From contig JBJMMA010000240.1 of assembly GCA_045805065.1 (NCBI GenBank), forward strand, positions 1 to 13,214: a DNA stretch of 13,214 nucleotides. Reading direction: 5' to 3'. Made by a program: the position numbers and the translations under genes. Below, one piece after another: positions 1-13,214 of this stretch (the stretch's first letter is position 1; every line of letters starts with the position of its first letter). The notes beneath the pieces were generated by a model that worked only from the letters and a program-made list of their open reading frames with translations, made no database searches and was not told where the DNA came from. The stretch is from Bdellovibrionia bacterium. GTDB lineage: Bacteria; Bdellovibrionota; UBA1018.

Positions 1-864
1 ACTGAAAGTCGACATTCCGGCCGAGGCTCGCTTTTGCCACAGGGAGAAGATATATATTCCTACGGAGGAAGGCATCTGGCGGTGGATGCTTCCAATCTGG
101 ATCGCGCGGTGAAGGCTCTCGCTCAAGGCAAGTCTTATGGCGCAACGTCGGCCTTTCAACGAGTTTTCCACAAATGGGATGAGTTCATTCCCATGCTTCA
201 AGAGCGTATGAAGCAGCTTTCAAACGACCCGATTGAGCTTCGTCCATTCACAAAGAAAGAAGCAAAAGCGATAGGCGCCGAAGCCGATGCCCGCTATTTC
301 AAGTTGATTCGCCACACATCTCAAGGCTCGGAAGAACACGCAGCGAAACTGACGCAGGAAGGGCTCATTGTTCTTTCGCCTTCTGAACTCTCAGCACCTA
401 AGAAGCACGGATTTTCCACTCAGGGATCGACGACAGGTCATCCCGCATTTCTGTCTAGCTCTTCTTCTTCTCTGATGGGCTTGGGTAATTCTCACTTGGG
501 GCGTAATCTCGAAAAAGAGGGTCATCAGTTGGACAATGCTGTGAGGTCTCTGATCAAAGGGAAATCCTATGGAGTGGCCGTACTGAAGAACCGGCCAATT
601 GAAGCCAAAACTGCTCGGGCGGCGTTTGATGATCTTTCCCAAAACTGGAATCAACTTGTTTACGAATTTGAAGAGCGCGTTAGAAAACTTTCAGACGGAA
701 AGTCAGAACTGATCCCGATCTCCGCCAAAGAAGCAGGCGTTGATGTCATTGGATACGGTCGTTATTTCAAGCTCATTCAAAATACAGAGAAGGGTGCCGA
801 AACCCATGTCGTCGAGCTGACTGCCGAGGGATTCAGCGTCCTCCCTTCTATTGATAAGTTTTGA
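1..864 (+). CDS. Hypothetical protein with two tandem copies of a ~95-105 aa domain (probably 5'-partial)
   Basis: Frame 1 is open from base 1 (TESRHSGRGSLLPQGE...) to TGA at 862-864, so the TTG at 34 is probably not the real start. Two internal repeats: LDRAVKALAQGKSYG...RYFKLIRHTSQGSEEHAAKLTQEGLIVL and LDNAVRSLIKGKSYG...RYFKLIQNTEKGAETHVVELTAEGFSVL. Confidence 0.8.
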   Translation, partial: TESRHSGRGSLLPQGEDIYSYGGRHLAVDASNLDRAVKALAQGKSYGATSAFQRVFHKWDEFIPMLQERMKQLSNDPIELRPFTKKEAKAIGAEADARYFKLIRHTSQGSEEHAAKLTQEGLIVLSPSELSAPKKHGFSTQGSTTGHPAFLSSSSSSLMGLGNSHLGRNLEKEGHQLDNAVRSLIKGKSYGVAVLKNRPIEAKTARAAFDDLSQNWNQLVYEFEERVRKLSDGKSELIPISAKEAGVDVIGYGRYFKLIQNTEKGAETHVVELTAEGFSVLPSIDKF

Positions 865-910
865 GCAGCTTCTGAGGAATGGTACCGTTTTTGCCTGCTG
901 TAACGTTACT

Positions 911-1324
911 ATGAAAGGCTTCAAGCAGTTCCTCATGCGAGGTAATGTCATTGACCTAGCCGTGGCGGTCGTTATTGGCGCGGCGTTCGGAACGGTCATT
1001 TCCACCTTCGTTAAAGATCTTTTGACACCGCTCATCGCTGCTCTCGGCGGGCAGCCGGACTTTTCAAATCTCGTATTCACACTGAACGGGAGCCAATTTC
1101 GCTACGGAGAGTTCATCAACGCCGTGATCGCTTTCATAATCGTGGCCGCTGTCGTGTACTACCTCATCGTGGTGCCCTCAGCTCAACTGAAAAGACTCGC
1201 GGATGAGGAAGTCGTTAATACACGGCAATGTCCGGAGTGTTTGAGCAGTATTCCTCTTCAGGCAAGGCGTTGCGCACATTGTGGCGAGCCAGTTGAGACG
1301 GTCACTTCTGCGAAGTCAGCCTGA
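911..1324 (+). CDS. mscL: Large-conductance mechanosensitive channel MscL with C-terminal CxxC...CxxC zinc-ribbon extension
   Basis: ATG at 911 gives MKGFKQFLMRGNVIDLAVAVVIGAAFG, the canonical MscL S1/TM1 signature. TM2 is YGEFINAVIAFIIVAAVVYY and the tail is CPECLSSIPLQARRCAHC. Confidence 0.95.
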   Translation: MKGFKQFLMRGNVIDLAVAVVIGAAFGTVISTFVKDLLTPLIAALGGQPDFSNLVFTLNGSQFRYGEFINAVIAFIIVAAVVYYLIVVPSAQLKRLADEEVVNTRQCPECLSSIPLQARRCAHCGEPVETVTSAKSA

Positions 1325-8010: not shown

Positions 8011-8316
8011 GTGAAAAATCGCTCACTCTTCGATTTGGTAAAGAAACGAAGAGTACCGATGTTCCTGCTGCCTTATATGAACCGATCACCGGAGACCAAG
8101 GCTTTAAAAACCACCGCAAAAATGCCATTGGACAAAAAGCTTGATTTAGGAGCGATAGGTGGCATTCGCGTCGAGCCGATATCGGAAGGGGTTCGAGTTC
8201 ATCTGGTTCAAGGTGAAGAGGCGGATGGCAAAAAGCAGGGCACTTCGAAAGATATCCAAGGTTGGAAGAGAATCACGGCCAAAGGCGGCACCGGGACTGG
8301 TTTTGAAAGCCTATGA
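8011..8316 (+). CDS. Small basic hypothetical protein (possible mobile-element gene or remnant; start uncertain)
   Basis: GTG-start ORF with AAGGA upstream. Its stop overlaps the next start (ATGA at 8313-8316). Confidence 0.45.
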   Translation: MKNRSLFDLVKKRRVPMFLLPYMNRSPETKALKTTAKMPLDKKLDLGAIGGIRVEPISEGVRVHLVQGEEADGKKQGTSKDIQGWKRITAKGGTGTGFESL

Positions 8317-8531
8317 ATAAAAAACAGAAGATCTATAAAGATTCAAAAGAGGCTCGTGAAGCCTATGAGGACGAAACAGAGTCCCTTCGTAGACTGTGTG
8401 TTTCTTACGCTGACAAGATAGCCCAACATGTGAAGCGTGCTGGCGGTCTAGAGCATTGCGCCGAGGTGGAAGCTTATGTGGCGAATCCCGAATTCAACCC
8501 GTTTCAAGCGTGTGTCATTGACAGTTGGTAA
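8313..8531 (+). CDS. Small hypothetical protein (72 aa), possibly 3'-truncated or chimeric
   Basis: Coupled to the upstream ORF through ATGA. Its 3' end runs into a resolvase-type HTH remnant in another frame. Confidence 0.45.
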   Translation: MNKKQKIYKDSKEAREAYEDETESLRRLCVSYADKIAQHVKRAGGLEHCAEVEAYVANPEFNPFQACVIDSW

Positions 8532-8644
8532 CCCTGAGGGGACAAGGTCTGTCTTGGCGGGAGATCGCCACACGACTTGAGGTCTCTAAAACTTCGGCGC
8601 TTCGAGTCTTTTGCTTGGACGCAAAGAGTTGCACGAAAATGTGA
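8522..8644 (+). pseudogene. Remnant C-terminal HTH of a resolvase/invertase-type serine recombinase (or similar HTH protein)
   Basis: Translates as QLVTLRGQGLSWREIATRLEVSKTSALRVFCLDAKSCTKM*, matching the LRxxGxSxRxIAxxLxVSKxT HTH pattern. An in-frame TGA lies directly upstream (8519-8521) and no catalytic domain is present. Confidence 0.6.
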
Positions 8645-8701
8645 GCAAAATCCGAGCATTCAGCGGAACACAAGATAAAGCAGAACAAGAGCTAATCGGC
8701 T

Positions 8702-9130
8702 TCATTTAGGCTGCATGTTGCTGACAACCATCAAAATTCGGGAATGGTGATGACCGGTGAAGCGATGAAAAAGCGTTCCTTGGATTTTTACATGCGCGCC
8801 TTTCCCAACCTTTCGAAAACTGTCCCAAAGCTTGTCATCTTCTTCTGAGATAGAAAGCTGGATAATTCTCACATTCCGTTCTTTTTCTGGATTTTCGATT
8901 TCGGAACTGGCTCCTTTGGGGAGGACATCAACAGCCTTGTCCAATTTTAGGTAAAAATGGCGTTCGATTTCGTCCCCATTCTTGATGCTTTCATAGTTGG
9001 GAGGACCAGGGAAGGTTTGCAAATCCAAGGTCCCCGTCAATTCAACGATGGAAGGGCCATAAGTTAGCACCTGATTTGAGGCAAGAGATGGGCAGGCAAA
9101 CAAGATCAATAAAAAAGGAAAGCTCTTCAT
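8702..9130 (-). CDS. Secreted DUF4431-domain protein (candidate immunity protein/inhibitor)
   Basis: Signal peptide, then VELTGTL...FPGPPNYESIKNGD...FYLKLD...IQL...GAHVKIQGTLFHRFTGHHHSRILM, the motif set I recognise as DUF4431. The start overlaps the upstream stop (ATGA). Confidence 0.85.
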   Translation of the reverse strand: MKSFPFLLILFACPSLASNQVLTYGPSIVELTGTLDLQTFPGPPNYESIKNGDEIERHFYLKLDKAVDVLPKGASSEIENPEKERNVRIIQLSISEEDDKLWDSFRKVGKGAHVKIQGTLFHRFTGHHHSRILMVVSNMQPK

Positions 9131-9309
9131 CCCTTAACCTTCAAGTTGTCAGATATGGATGAATTGCTGACATTGCCCGAAACAAGATTGCCTGGATTAT
9201 GATTGCGCCATGGTCTACTGCCGCCCTCAAATATCCATTCCTTGCCATCAGAGTCAGTATAGATCACCGAATGACGAGGTCCCGATTCTGCTTTGATATA
9301 CTTTGGCAT
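9127..9309 (-). pseudogene. Internally deleted 'RNxNPGNL' lysozyme-like/virion-type peptidoglycan hydrolase gene
   Basis: GGSRPWRNHNPGNL is the N-terminal motif of this family, but only 18 residues follow (VSGNVSNSSISDNLKVKG*), so the rest of the domain is missing. The stop is still coupled to DUF4431. Confidence 0.65.
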
Positions 9310-9319
9310 CACTCAGTTC

Positions 9320-9703
9320 TCAAACAGCTACGTCAAACTCATCCCAGGGACAGTGCGGCACAAGAGCCGTCCTCTTTTTCCCAGTATCCTTTGCGATTTT
9401 AAATTCCAGGACCCCAAGATCCGCTAGATCTTGAACATCCTTTTGCACGTTGGGCTGAGAGCGCTTAAGAAGTCGAGCCAGCTCCCGGATTGATGCGGGC
9501 TTTTTCTCGCGAACTGTTTGAATAATGCGAATACGTTCGGGGCTAAATACTCTGGAAAGGGACGAGGCGTCTTGGAAACTTAAGACTAGATTGTATTCTG
9601 GTTCCCATATAGTGCCGTGCTCTGCCGCCTTCCACGCTTTACCAAAGTCACTTTTGAAATTCTCTAATGATTGGATCTTAATCTTGAACTTTTTCGTTTT
9701 CAT
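9320..9703 (-). CDS. Winged-HTH transcriptional regulator/antitoxin (COG4190/HVO_A0114-like, TumA-type partner of DUF6516 toxins)
   Basis: LSFQDASSLSRVFSPERIRIIQTVREKKPASIRELARLLKRSQPNVQKDVQDLADLGVLEF...LVPHCPWDEF. GGAGG SD upstream, and the start overlaps the stop of the toxin C-terminal frame (ATGA 9700-9703). Confidence 0.85.
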   Translation of the reverse strand: MKTKKFKIKIQSLENFKSDFGKAWKAAEHGTIWEPEYNLVLSFQDASSLSRVFSPERIRIIQTVREKKPASIRELARLLKRSQPNVQKDVQDLADLGVLEFKIAKDTGKKRTALVPHCPWDEFDVAV

Positions 9704-9910
9704 ACAAAGCCTCCTAAGCGTCTTACTTCGGCAAAGAAGTCATTCCAAAGTTGTTCAACGGAATGGAACTGATAATCCTTCTCTTGACCATCTATATGAC
9801 AGAGGTCTCCATCGGTCGGGCCGAATCGGTTTGATTTGCCAGTCGATGAAACTGCCATCTTGAAGGTCAAACCGTGACGAAGATCCTATATACCGATATG
9901 GTATCGCCAT
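9700..9910 (-). pseudogene. TumE/DUF6516-like toxin gene, internally deleted and frameshifted
   Basis: The frame from ATG 9910 gives MAIPYRYIGSSSRFDLQDGSFIDWQIKPIRPDRWRP (to 9803). A different frame from 9801 gives CHIDGQEKDYQFHSVEQLWNDFFAEVRRLGGFV* (stop 9700-9702), matching the DUF6516 C-terminus. The central YRL...DNxxGKxxH segment is absent. Confidence 0.75.
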
Positions 9911-9918
9911 ATCGGTAT
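9890..9918. promoter_or_regulatory. Perfect 12-bp inverted repeat ATACCGATATGG-tatcg-CCATATCGGTAT over the toxin start; likely TA operator
   Basis: Arms at 9890-9901 and 9907-9918 overlap the ATG at 9908-9910. Confidence 0.6.
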
Positions 9919-9996
9919 GCGTACAATATAGGAAAAAGTTCGTTTAAATCGCGTTCGACGTTTTGCAGTGAGTTGAGATTATGAAGGAATTTAAGA

Positions 9997-10071
9997 TGGT
10001 GGTCCCACCAAGAATCGAACTTGGAACGGCCCTTTAGGAAAGGGCTGTTATATCCATTTAACTATGGGACC
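9997..10071 (-). tRNA. tRNA-Arg (anticodon CCT, reads AGG), CCA encoded
   Basis: Minus strand GGTCCCA-TA-GTTAAATGGATATAAC-A-GCCCT-TTCCTAA-AGGGC-CGTT-CCAAG-TTCGATT-CTTGG-TGGGACC-A-CCA forms a complete 75-nt cloverleaf. Confidence 0.97.
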
Positions 10072-10146
10072 ACTCAACTTGAGATATCGAGGAGCTGAGT
10101 AAAACTCAATCTTGTTTTTTCTGGCCAAGCGAGTCATGCTCCGGCC

Positions 10147-10476
10147 ATGGGTAAGTCCTTGAGTTCTTTTGTTGTGGTTATGGCATTGTTTCAAGCTTTG
10201 GCGGCCAACGCGGATGAAGTGATCACTCCTCCGGGCGGAAAGGGCTGGGGAGAGGGGACGACGGCTGAATCGCTTCTCAATATGAACCGGGATCCTGAAT
10301 CGGTTCGCAAAGTCGATCCTGAGCGGGTTCCGATTCCGATTCGCGGGACCTGCACGGACGATCAAGGCAAGACCTACACGGGCGATGACGAAGACTACGC
10401 CCTTTGCATGAACCGTAAAACTTCCAGAACAAAGGCCTCGGCTCCGGCACCTGCTTCCGTCATCAAGAAAAACTGA
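10147..10476 (+). CDS. Secreted hypothetical protein
   Basis: Signal peptide MGKSLSSFVVVMALFQALAANA|D, a Cys pair (GTCTD...ALCM) and a basic Pro/Ala tail. The stop abuts the convergent regulator stop. Confidence 0.75.
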   Translation: MGKSLSSFVVVMALFQALAANADEVITPPGGKGWGEGTTAESLLNMNRDPESVRKVDPERVPIPIRGTCTDDQGKTYTGDDEDYALCMNRKTSRTKASAPAPASVIKKN

Positions 10477-11223
10477 TCAGCGGCCAGGAGCATTCCGGCG
10501 TTGAGAGGAATCAGCGCTCTTTTTTTGGCTCTCGTTCTTTAGAATATATCCTGCCGAGTAGATCGTCTTGAAGGCATGATCAAAACCGACAAGCTTTCTG
10601 CGGAGTGAGGCCATGTGCGTATCGACCGTGCGATCGGAGACGACGGAATCTTTCCAGACGGCCTCTAGGATTTTCTGGCGGCTGATCACGCGATCCACAT
10701 TCTCAACAAAGTAACGAAGCAGGTTGAACTCAAGCACGCTGATTGTAATCGTCTCGCCATTGATCGTTACTTCGAACTTGTCAGGATCGAGCGTGAGGTT
10801 TCCGCAACGGATGACTTGAGATGCGGCGGCAGGATTTTTCTCATCAAGCCTTCTCATCTTGGCGCGAATGCGCGCCAGAAGCTCGCGAATCTCATAAGGC
10901 TTGGACACCATATCATCAGCACCGCTTCCGAATGCGCTGATGCGCGGATCGAGCTCCGATGAGCCCGTGACAACCAGAATGGTGATGTCGCGAGTCTCTT
11001 CGCTCACTCGGAGTGTCTGACAAGTGCGAATGCCATCCATTCCGGGCATCACAAGATCCAGCAAGATCAAATCGGGCCGGACTTCGCGGGCCATTCTCAC
11101 TCCATCTTCACCATTGGATGCGAGATAAGTTTTATATTCCGACGATAATATATCGTTTAAAACTTCGAGACTGTCTTTGTCATCATCAATAATGAGGATG
11201 CTACGCCGAGATGCTTGCAACAT
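10477..11223 (-). CDS. OmpR/PhoB-family DNA-binding response regulator
   Basis: Receiver motifs ILIIDDD, LILLDLVMPGMDG, VVTG and VSKPY. Winged-helix output EFNLLRYF...SRQKILEAVW...SDRTVDTHMASLRRKL...KTIYSAGY. Confidence 0.95.
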   Translation of the reverse strand: MLQASRRSILIIDDDKDSLEVLNDILSSEYKTYLASNGEDGVRMAREVRPDLILLDLVMPGMDGIRTCQTLRVSEETRDITILVVTGSSELDPRISAFGSGADDMVSKPYEIRELLARIRAKMRRLDEKNPAAASQVIRCGNLTLDPDKFEVTINGETITISVLEFNLLRYFVENVDRVISRQKILEAVWKDSVVSDRTVDTHMASLRRKLVGFDHAFKTIYSAGYILKNESQKKSADSSQRRNAPGR

Positions 11224-11326
11224 ATTGGTAGAATAAGGAGCGCCTATTCGAAGCGCAATTAATTTTAAATAGAAAATCTATAGAATTAGATTTTTCAGCG
11301 TCATGAGCTGCTTGCTTAACAGACAG

Positions 11327-11620
11327 CTAGTAGTCGAGATAGTCATTTCGCGGCGGAAGAGAGGGAAGATGTGAAGGAGTGCGCGCTCCACGAGCTGCTC
11401 GCTTTCTTCGCAAGTGATGCGCTTGAGTCGATGTGATGGCGCGACGACGAAATGTTTGATGAAGCGCGCGCATGATCATGGGTGACATGATCCAGGAGGC
11501 TGCAGCAAAAACCCCCATCAGCCAGAAACCAGAGTCTTGCGAGCGGCTTGAGACATGGATTGAGTTTTTCACGCACCACGAGAAGTGCAAAGCGCGAGCC
11601 GCAGGTGAGTCGTGTCTCAA
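11327..11620 (-). CDS. Possible small protein with one hydrophobic segment (start uncertain)
   Basis: Co-oriented between hrpB and the regulator, with GFWLMGVFAAASWIMSPMIM followed by a basic tail. Several competing overlapping ORFs exist. Confidence 0.3.
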   Translation of the reverse strand: MRHDSPAARALHFSWCVKNSIHVSSRSQDSGFWLMGVFAAASWIMSPMIMRALHQTFRRRAITSTQAHHLRRKRAARGARTPSHLPSLPPRNDYLDY

Positions 11621-11621
11621 T

Positions 11622-11662
11622 CAAAAGAATTTGGGCAAAAGAATTTGGGCAAAAGAATTTTG
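11622..11662. repeat. 14-bp tandem repeat CAAAAGAATTTGGG (two perfect copies plus one partial)
   Basis: Copies at 11622-11635 and 11636-11649, with a partial CAAAAGAATTTTG at 11650-11662, just past the hrpB stop. Confidence 0.9.
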
Positions 11663-11670
11663 CGAAAGAT

Positions 11671-13214
11671 TTACTTCACGGGTTTGAGTGGATCTTCTGG
11701 CCAAGCGTGACGTGGATAACGACGGCTCAACGCGTTTCTCTGTTCGCGGTAACCGCGTTCCCAAAAACCTGCGAGATCTGTGGTGACCTGGACAGCGCGT
11801 TGATTGGGCGCAAGAAGATGCAAAGTGAGAGGAAGTCTTCCATCCAAAAGCGCGGGTCCTTGGCGCATTCCGAAAAAATCCTGAAGTCGCGACTCAACCC
11901 ACGGAGTTTTATCGAGGGCATAATAGATGCGTGCGCGTCGACCACTTGGAAGCGCAATCGACTCCGGCAACCATCGATCCAGTTGAGAAAGCGCATCGGG
12001 AACAAGCGCTCCTAAAATCTCCGCTGGCCAATCCGTCTCGCGAAGCTCGGCGAGTGAGGTTCGAGTTTCAAAAATTCCTGCAAGCGCACTGAATCCTTTT
12101 TCCGGTTCAAAGGATTCAGCCATCTGAGGGAAGTGTTTCTTCAAGAGGAGCGCGCGCGCAAAAGCACCTTCGAGTTTTTCTGGATCCGCGACAGTCGATA
12201 GCGCCCGAATCCAGTCCTGAACACTCAACTCCTGAAGTTTCGATGCATCCAGTCCCAAAACGGAGCGAAGCAGAATGCGGGCAGAGGCGCTGCCGGGAGT
12301 TGCGGGTTTTGATTTCTCTTCAAGCACGAGCTCGTCATAGACAAGCTGCGAGGATTGCATGACCCGCGATCGGTCCTGATCCCAGGTGAAGATTTCACGA
12401 TCCTCCAGTGGAGATGGAGAAAGCTCAATCAACCATTCCATTTGAATGGGGGAGAGCGAGCTGACCTGAAGCTTGGAGCGAGCCTGACCCAAATGCTGGA
12501 TCTCGCGCAGATCCAGGGTGACAAAAAAATCTGAAGAGAGAGTGGTTGCGGATTCTTCGATTTTCGCGGAACCCCCGGACGCAAAGACAAGCTCTGTTTC
12601 GCCTGCCTGAGAGCGAGCCGAGCTTGCTGCAGCTTTCCTTCTTTTTGAAACCCGATCAGGAAAGCCTGTGAGAAGAGAGAATCGGAGTCGATCATCGGCG
12701 TTCTCAGTCAGGGGCTTTGGGGCAGCTTGAGCTTCCTTCGCCGCTTGAATGAGTTGCTGCTTGAGCTTACGTTGCGTGTCGCTCATTGGAAGTTTCAGGC
12801 AGTCGACGGCATCAAGCCTCTCGAGCCTTCCTTCTGAGATCCAGCTGGCAAGAGCTGCGGCCTCATCGAGACAGTTCTGCCTGGCAGCTTCGAGCAGAAA
12901 GCGCGCAATGCGAGGATGCGCTGGAAAGCGCGCCATCTGACGGCCGATTTCGGTCAGCGTGCCTGAAGGCAACGCGCTCTCAATTGCACCCAATCGATGG
13001 AGAAGTTTCCAGGACGCATCAAGGGCGGTTGCGGCAGGAGCTTCAAACCATTCGATCGTTTCAAGATCAAAAAGTCCCATGGCCTTGAGCTCAAGGAGCG
13101 TTTGAGAAAGGTCCGCTCGTTGAATCTCAGGCGTCTCAAAGGGAGGGCGACTGTCAAAGTCACCCTGCGTGTAAAGCCTGAAGCAGCGTCCTGGAGCGGT
13201 ACGTCCCGCGCGGC
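11671..13214 (-). CDS. hrpB: ATP-dependent DEAH-box RNA helicase HrpB (5'-partial)
   Basis: The frame is open to the window edge: RAGRTAPGRCFRLY (motif VI), PEIQRADL, LTEIGRQMARFPAHPRIAR (HA2), GFPDRV, and HrpB_C LQDFFG...LHLLAPNQRAVQVTTDLAGFW...RRYPRHAWPEDP. Confidence 0.96.
   Translation of the reverse strand, partial: RAGRTAPGRCFRLYTQGDFDSRPPFETPEIQRADLSQTLLELKAMGLFDLETIEWFEAPAATALDASWKLLHRLGAIESALPSGTLTEIGRQMARFPAHPRIARFLLEAARQNCLDEAAALASWISEGRLERLDAVDCLKLPMSDTQRKLKQQLIQAAKEAQAAPKPLTENADDRLRFSLLTGFPDRVSKRRKAAASSARSQAGETELVFASGGSAKIEESATTLSSDFFVTLDLREIQHLGQARSKLQVSSLSPIQMEWLIELSPSPLEDREIFTWDQDRSRVMQSSQLVYDELVLEEKSKPATPGSASARILLRSVLGLDASKLQELSVQDWIRALSTVADPEKLEGAFARALLLKKHFPQMAESFEPEKGFSALAGIFETRTSLAELRETDWPAEILGALVPDALSQLDRWLPESIALPSGRRARIYYALDKTPWVESRLQDFFGMRQGPALLDGRLPLTLHLLAPNQRAVQVTTDLAGFWERGYREQRNALSRRYPRHAWPEDPLKPVK

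Follow-up and report, generated by a model that had tools for sequence, protein, structure and literature searches.

TumE-TumA pairs (PF20126, formerly DUF6516) form an experimentally validated superfamily of translation-targeting type II toxin-antitoxin systems, and the describing paper demonstrates, in Escherichia coli, both the toxicity of the TumE family and its neutralization by the antitoxin (Durairaj et al. 2023, PMC10584680). For the Enc34 endolysin (PHA02564, PDB 7q47), a diverged GH73/GH23-like glycosidase, the describing paper reports that Glu131, Trp79 and Tyr95 are catalytically important and argues for N-acetylglucosaminidase activity (Cernooka et al. 2022, PMC8943055). Relatives of both systems stand side by side in a 13,214-nt stretch of DNA (the window), which is the entire contig C240 of a 4.2-Mb, 94% complete assembly (genome G000) from a soil Bdellovibrio-like bacterium. 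A TumE-TumA pair is followed there by a hydrolase of the Enc34 type and a putatively secreted protein of the family DUF4431, and in each pair the first gene has lost its middle and the second is intact. We favor, as the probable explanation, that these are two self-contained poison-antidote modules, each with its poison killed by one deletion and its antidote surviving, and that the locus is an expected intermediate of their decay.

The first pair resembles the TumE-TumA superfamily in its toxin-then-antitoxin order, its 4-nt gene overlap, its winged helix-turn-helix (HTH) DNA-binding antitoxin and a palindrome at the toxin start; the intact orthologue in genome G003 matches Pfam TumE. It differs in that the TumE of the window is dead (an 83-nt frameshifting deletion, an ATA start and no Pfam match). 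The copies described here are about 90 aa long and of Bdellovibrionota origin; the examples tested in PMC10584680 were from Proteobacteria.

The hydrolase of the second pair matches the Enc34 endolysin by profile and fold over residues 28 to 147, and its family keeps the catalytic Glu and Tyr. Unlike that endolysin, it is encoded in the chromosome, outside any lysis cassette, and is paired with secreted DUF4431; it also has an extra N-terminal beta-hairpin, a DUF3892 domain where Enc34 has its transmembrane domain, and Tyr or Phe in place of Trp79. A second likeness is to Tge2-Tgi2 of Pseudomonas protegens (PDB 4kt3), a type VI secretion system (T6SS) pair in which the gene for a wall-cleaving enzyme adjoins that for a protein sent out to the wall compartment; chain 4kt3_A gives a weak fold match to the hydrolase (Z 4.2). 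However, no T6SS sheath gene was found in six genomes, the hydrolase has no recognizable delivery domain, the candidate immunity protein is an OB (oligonucleotide/oligosaccharide-binding) fold of an uncharacterized family, and the hydrolase-DUF4431 module travels alone. Orphan immunity genes and AID clusters offer the further likeness that immunity genes outlive effectors.

In Bdellovibrio itself, the wall-modifying enzyme Bd3459 (DacB) of the predator is encoded beside Bd3460, which protects the producer. The hydrolase-DUF4431 pair has another class of enzyme and another protector fold, and Bd3459 has a signal peptide.

Four genes in two coupled pairs

The four genes lie in the same direction on the minus strand, downstream of tRNA-Arg(CCT), in the order TumE remnant, TumA, hydrolase stub, DUF4431. 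TumE and TumA overlap by ATGA at 9700-9703, as do the hydrolase stub and DUF4431 at 9127-9130, and the TumA stop is separated from the ATG of the stub (9309) by 10 nt. The original prediction had described this arrangement, with both toxins internally deleted but preserved at their ends and both antidotes intact; the reading frames and sequence confirm the layout, and comparisons with intact relatives and with Pfam models, given below, uphold the rest.

The first gene is the remnant of a TumE family member, and the window has no working TumE. As a reference we used an intact 90-aa TumE from G003 (contig C56), which matches Pfam TumE with an E value of 4.4e-11 (43 bits versus a cut-off of 23.4); neither frame of the window matches PF20126 at E ≤ 1. 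Aligned with this reference, the window shows one 83-nt gap, 136 of 187 matching bases and a shifted frame, with the junction at 9801-9803 and 1 nt of microhomology or ambiguity. The 5' part, recognized by comparison with the G003 TumE, occupies 9803..9910 on the minus strand in frame A (an open reading frame [ORF] at 9755-9910 that reaches a stop past the junction) and is 79% identical in amino acids to residues 1 to 34 of the reference. The 3' part, recognized by single-gap alignment and tblastn, occupies 9700..9802 on the same strand in frame B (ORF 9700-9870) and ends in the overlap with TumA; tblastn with the G003 TumE matched frame B over query residues 30 to 90, the first of which fall in the deleted stretch. 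Among 22 aligned TumE sequences, 11 positions are invariant. Five of them (G31, D49, N50, H51 and K54) have been removed, and H57, H59, E64 and Y67 are now out of frame with the start. The start codon is ATG in all three relatives compared and ATA in the window (9887-9889), a second lesion beside the 83-nt deletion; an upstream ATG in frame A is present at 9908-9910.

The second gene (9320..9703, minus strand) encodes an intact TumA antitoxin of 127 aa, a winged-HTH protein of the HVO_A0114 family that matches PF25212 over residues 40 to 122 (E = 2.3e-22; 79 bits versus a cut-off of 27.6). Matches to the HTH_20, ArsR and MarR models were below or near their cut-offs. The protein shares 76% identity with TumA of G003, whose gene comes after the intact TumE with an ATGA overlap. 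Over the TumE start, at 9890..9918, we read a perfect palindrome whose 12-nt arms flank a 5-nt spacer. Both arms are changed in G003:C56 and in G048:C266 with palindromy kept, and the element is likely a candidate TumA operator with a lineage-specific sequence.

The third gene is a 60-aa hydrolase stub at 9127..9309 on the minus strand, with its ATG at 9309 (in a 61-aa ORF at 9127-9312), delimited from the alignment of relatives. It retains residues 1 to 48, which comprise the beta-hairpin domain and the WRNxNPGNL motif, together with the final 12 residues. Compared with the 222-aa copies of G063 and G066, 486 nt (162 codons) have been lost in frame, with the 5' junction at 9164|9163. An intact comparator is found in G023:C97, where a 222-aa hydrolase gene overlaps a DUF4431 gene by ATGA. 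One objection foreseen for the original prediction, that such homologues might be naturally this short, falls away. A search limited to proteins of 122 to 389 aa returned 276 homologues at E ≤ 0.001, and the 120 matches listed measure 187 to 320 aa (most of them 212 to 234 aa); the stub had no words in common with any 33- to 105-aa protein of a 5.8-billion-protein set, so a naturally short form does not exist.

A profile of 47 hydrolase members matched the Enc34 endolysin's catalytic domain (7q47, E = 2.2e-5) and the N terminus of the 1,295-aa protein Gp29 (9vvp, E = 1.9e-14). An AlphaFold2 model of the hydrolase (predicted local distance difference test score [pLDDT] of 90.9) agreed with 7q47 in Foldseek (E = 2.6e-4) and in VIA (Z 10.3, root-mean-square deviation of 3.0 over 113 residues); the next VIA match had a Z of 5.0, and weak matches at Z 3.8 to 4.3 included GH73-type glucosaminidases and the T6SS effector chain mentioned above. 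Two of the residues described as important in the Enc34 enzyme, Glu131 and Tyr95, align with E138 and Y103, which are invariant in the 47 members, and the position of Trp79 is Tyr or Phe. All three positions are deleted in the window, as is the C-terminal DUF3892 domain (PF13031), which spans residues 155 to 220 of the G023 homologue (38.8 bits versus a cut-off of 22.3). By profile and model, the 222-aa family is a predicted peptidoglycan glycosidase of the Enc34 endolysin type joined to DUF3892, and the window keeps the ends only. We also considered a prophage lysis cassette and rejected it: there are no conserved phage neighbors, and DUF4431 has no PHROG match.

The fourth gene (8702..9130, minus strand) encodes an intact DUF4431 protein of 142 aa (PF14485, E = 5e-8; 33 bits versus a cut-off of 24), which has all the motifs conserved in a 33-sequence alignment (FPGPPNY, GDExE and GHHH). 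Its N terminus, read by eye, is signal-peptide-like. The model of the G023 homologue (pLDDT 88.3) is an OB-fold barrel, and among its fold matches are periplasmic OB proteins as well as protease inhibitors of the potempin kind. A known immunity or lysozyme-inhibitor fold was rejected for DUF4431, for which the matches are generic OB folds only (Z ≤ 7.4). PADLOC had no match for TumE, the hydrolase or DUF4431, PHROGs had none for DUF4431, the ESM Atlas returned only unnamed clusters of the same hydrolase and DUF4431 families, and no paper in the literature library searched mentions DUF4431. DUF4431 is most likely an antidote (immunity protein) to the hydrolase; this candidacy draws on the gene neighborhoods and decay patterns of relatives, described next.

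The pairs in relatives

The hydrolase was detected in 31 of 116 genomes of the order and DUF4431 in 27; a Pfam-family genome search found PF14485 in 24 of 301 genomes of the phylum. We tallied 64 places, scoring a gene as intact if one open frame covered nearly the whole hidden Markov model (HMM) and as cut if the match lay ≤15 nt from a contig end. With broken copies counted, hydrolase and DUF4431 lie next to each other in the same direction in 43 of these places, and in 24 of the 43 both are intact. The hydrolase is intact in 27 places, broken in 24, cut in 4 and without a match in 9; the corresponding figures for DUF4431 are 49, 3, 1 and 11. A broken hydrolase accompanies an intact DUF4431 in 17 places and an intact hydrolase accompanies a broken DUF4431 in none. 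Intact hydrolases without any DUF4431 number two, and intact DUF4431 genes without a trace of hydrolase number seven, one of them situated at a contig end and another matching weakly. The three DUF4431 genes scored as broken consist of one true remnant, one lying 20 nt from a contig end and one divergent partial match, and the copy in G106:C41 was scored as intact despite a stop that removes its N terminus.

The lesions of the hydrolase are varied: frameshifts, stops, N-terminal stubs and in-frame internal deletion. An independent in-frame deletion in G018:C178 (place L038, 1498-1845) joins HMM positions 3-76 to 192-220 in a 127-aa frame, with no adjacent DUF4431. The same-genus genome G001 carries another lineage of the module, in which the hydrolase is broken and DUF4431 intact. 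The hydrolase gene is 1.55-fold longer than its partner, and length does not explain the difference in breakage. A dead toxin beside a whole antidote is a recurrent state for this pair, which appears to behave across relatives like a poison-antidote pair, a reading that the counts support.

The order of the genes is hydrolase then DUF4431 in the closest relatives of the window and the reverse in most others, and start-stop overlaps are kept in either order. Where intact hydrolases lack DUF4431 (L024:1498-2633 and L026:728-2157), each is followed instead by a different ORF (159 and 254 aa) with a signal peptide, a 4-nt overlap and no Pfam match. We also observed, in G030:C5 (L027, 2200-2805), two DUF4431 domains in a single 285-aa frame upstream of an intact hydrolase.

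Clustering of flanking ORFs over 48 places gave no conserved neighbor except shadow ORFs, an HNH-like gene (4 places) and an ATPase (3 places). The hydrolase-DUF4431 pair has unrelated upstream neighbors in G023, G098, G063, G066 and two more genomes, and a HigA-like gene comes after TumE-TumA in G003. The intact four-gene operon that the original prediction expected in relatives was not what we found; each pair is carried alone instead, and the four genes of the window are therefore two independent modules, not one ancestral operon. The only other place with both module types is L048 (G006:C3:63000-67700), where a frameshifted hydrolase is divergent from an intact TumE-TumA pair.

Genes resembling TumA are present in 49 of the 116 genomes. 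In the best 30 loci, which hold 31 TumE-TumA pairs, TumE is intact in 22 pairs, clearly broken or absent beside an intact TumA in 4 (the window, L089, L103 and one pair of L105), ambiguous in 4 (L087, L099, L109 and the other pair of L105) and cut at a contig end in 1. No intact TumE stands beside a broken TumA among the 31. The toxin-then-antitoxin overlap layout is present in the window, and in 26 of the other 30 pairs TumA has a TumE-like match immediately upstream.

Selection, sequencing runs and genomic setting

In all nine whole-gene comparisons with genes of the window, dS (the synonymous substitution rate) is undefined or saturated, and in the three remnant comparisons it is undefined, 2.0 and 3.7; selection after the deletions is therefore not measurable by dN/dS (the ratio of nonsynonymous to synonymous rates) with the available relatives. 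The dead remnants are conserved as well as live genes: the N-terminal remnant of TumE retains 93% amino acid identity, and the N-terminal part of the hydrolase has a dN/dS of 0.06 at a dS of 3.7. For this reason the deletions look recent. In the family at large, comparisons of DUF4431 copies with intact partners against orphans gave dN/dS values of 0.37 (dS 0.057) and 0.08, and a copy with an intact partner against one with a broken partner gave 0.06. The value was 0.06 (dS 2.8) where both partners were broken, and 0.25 and 0.45 where both were intact. The DUF4431 family stays under purifying selection after its partner dies, and since constraint persists after hydrolase loss, orphan copies probably still do something useful.

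Eight sequencing runs from three studies match parts of the stretch, and none of the eight is RNA. A 151-nt contig from run X4, another metagenome, matches 9164-9251 with one difference (99%) and then continues for 63 nt unlike the window. Its 30-nt consensus beyond the junction, on the gene strand, corresponds to the hydrolase family sequence that normally follows residue 48. Judging from this contig, which is no independent proof of the deleted allele, a nearly identical lineage retains undeleted hydrolase sequence at the 5' junction, which fixes that junction at 9164|9163 and suggests that the hydrolase deletion is recent and polymorphic.

The tRNA-Arg gene upstream of the four genes (anticodon CCT, 9997..10071, minus strand) was identified with ARAGORN. 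DNA synteny with G001 spans 9988-13214 and ends at this gene, with the G001 contig running about 300 nt beyond it, and the G+C content is 0.43 to 0.47 to its left versus 0.52 to 0.56 to its right. The synteny break and the drop in G+C content place the four genes in a variable, lower-G+C island; none of the direct repeats of the window was an att-like copy of the tRNA end. A scan for sigma-70 promoters over 8400-10150 returned 0 sites versus 2.0 expected. In searches of the window genome, neither the hydrolase nor DUF4431 nor TumE turned up a second time, and TumA had one distant paralogue (G000:C81, 26% identical). The source names of homologues include Pseudobdellovibrionaceae and Oligoflexia.

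Elsewhere in the window, a 72-aa ORF and an overlapping 39-aa ORF at 8313-8644 (plus strand) give a weak match to the resolvase-type HTH_7 model (E = 0.0076); they may be a single frameshifted small HTH gene and represent further decay of the island. Between an HrpB-like helicase gene, just upstream, and a response-regulator gene, a 14-nt unit is repeated three times in tandem at 11622-11667 (seen as overlapping 18-nt repeats). An MscL channel gene at 851-1324 (plus strand; Pfam E = 2.5e-34) has at its C terminus a short tail that resembles a zinc ribbon and weakly matches UPF0547 and DZR.

Explanations for the surviving partners

Under the decay explanation, the first module would have encoded a TumE that inhibits translation and a TumA that probably acts as a repressor of the pair by way of the palindrome over the toxin start. 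The second would have encoded a cytoplasmically made Enc34-type glycosidase with a C-terminal DUF3892 and a secreted OB-fold DUF4431, which most likely neutralizes the glycosidase at the cell wall. The poison would have been lost first in each module, TumE by the 83-nt frameshift and the hydrolase by the 486-nt in-frame loss. Poison-first is the only order in which such a pair can be lost without killing the cell, antidote-first loss not being viable, so positive selection is not required to explain the pattern. It is well established that antitoxins and immunity genes occur as orphans, and toxin death is the usual route by which such pairs decay.

Several observations weigh against this account. 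No route that would bring the glycosidase to peptidoglycan or to secreted DUF4431 was apparent: a signal peptide was not seen by eye in the hydrolase, and a search confined to the T6SS sheath family PF05943 gave no match in the window genome or in five genomes with an intact hydrolase (all 92 to 98% complete). The fold matches of DUF4431 in Foldseek and VIA are generic OB folds (PriB/SSB, template-modeling score of about 0.4, Z up to 7.4). The asymmetry of breakage is strong by Fisher's test (27/24 versus 49/3, p = 1.3e-6), but that test is uncorrected for the relatedness of the genomes and counts places rather than events on a tree, and 4 of the 24 hydrolases scored as broken are merely C-terminally short (HMM end at 199 to 207) and may work. 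Both junctions come from a single metagenome assembly; among the four runs examined no contig bridges either of them, with 9526-9903 uncovered; and the inference that both deletions are probably recent draws on the conserved remnants and the single 151-nt contig.

The original prediction proposed that selection removed both toxic activities and kept TumA and DUF4431 as an expressed, antidote-only cassette that shields the cell against incoming elements or competitors carrying such toxins. Its poison-antidote core stands, with dead toxins, whole partners and one-sided decay (17 versus 0 of 64 places); selection at this locus is unproven, and the forced order of decay suffices. Both antidote genes are whole with their start contexts and overlaps kept, the in-frame hydrolase deletion spares the 3' end that carries the ribosome site of DUF4431, and DUF4431 genes beside a broken hydrolase (17) or alone (7) are common among the 64 places and constrained. 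Protective orphan immunity genes and orphan antitoxins are established concepts. However, no RNA run and no sigma-70-like promoter speaks for expression, dS is saturated, the remnants are as conserved as live genes, as expected if the deletions are recent, an in-frame outcome arises by chance one time in three, and toxin-first loss yields the same picture without selection; we regard the cassette as unlikely. Somewhat less unlikely, and still doubtful, is that DUF4431 is no antidote, the hydrolase being a dispensable enzyme of wall remodeling or predation and DUF4431 having its own periplasmic function or acting as an activator. The missing export signal and sheath gene fit this possibility, as do the generic fold, the lack of any PADLOC model matching either protein and the occurrence of DUF4431 alone, with all its motifs, in seven places. 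An enzyme-activator pair should decay symmetrically, yet none of the 27 intact hydrolases stands beside a broken DUF4431. Start-stop overlaps kept in both gene orders also argue against it, as does the occurrence of unrelated secreted ORFs as partners of divergent hydrolases, the kind of swap that is typical of effector-immunity pairs, and so does the finding that about half of the hydrolase copies are pseudogenes, with several copies in some genomes and a patchy distribution (31 of 116). That one or both deletions are assembly artifacts, for example a chimeric join between strains, could account for the unspanned junctions and for the near-identical X4 contig with undeleted hydrolase sequence, but it is very improbable: junction microhomology is just 1 to 2 nt with no collapsible repeat, both remnants keep their correct flanks and gene overlaps, and similar lesions, including the in-frame deletion in G018:C178, occur in many independent assemblies.

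If the decay explanation is correct, the locus itself represents ordinary toxin-first decay of addiction-type modules. The new lead is DUF4431 as the constant partner of an Enc34-type glycosidase across Bdellovibrionota, with strongly one-sided gene death; the pair looks like an undescribed family of a cell wall hydrolase and its protector. We tentatively speculate that the two form a secretion-system-independent toxin-immunity family of predatory Bdellovibrionota, in which orphan or widowed DUF4431 genes, that of the window among them, would be retained because their products shield the wall against the hydrolases of related predators or mobile elements. The hypothesis concerns two uncharacterized families in predators whose biology centers on attacking walls and protecting their own, and, if true, it would give DUF4431 its first function, that of a self-protection factor.

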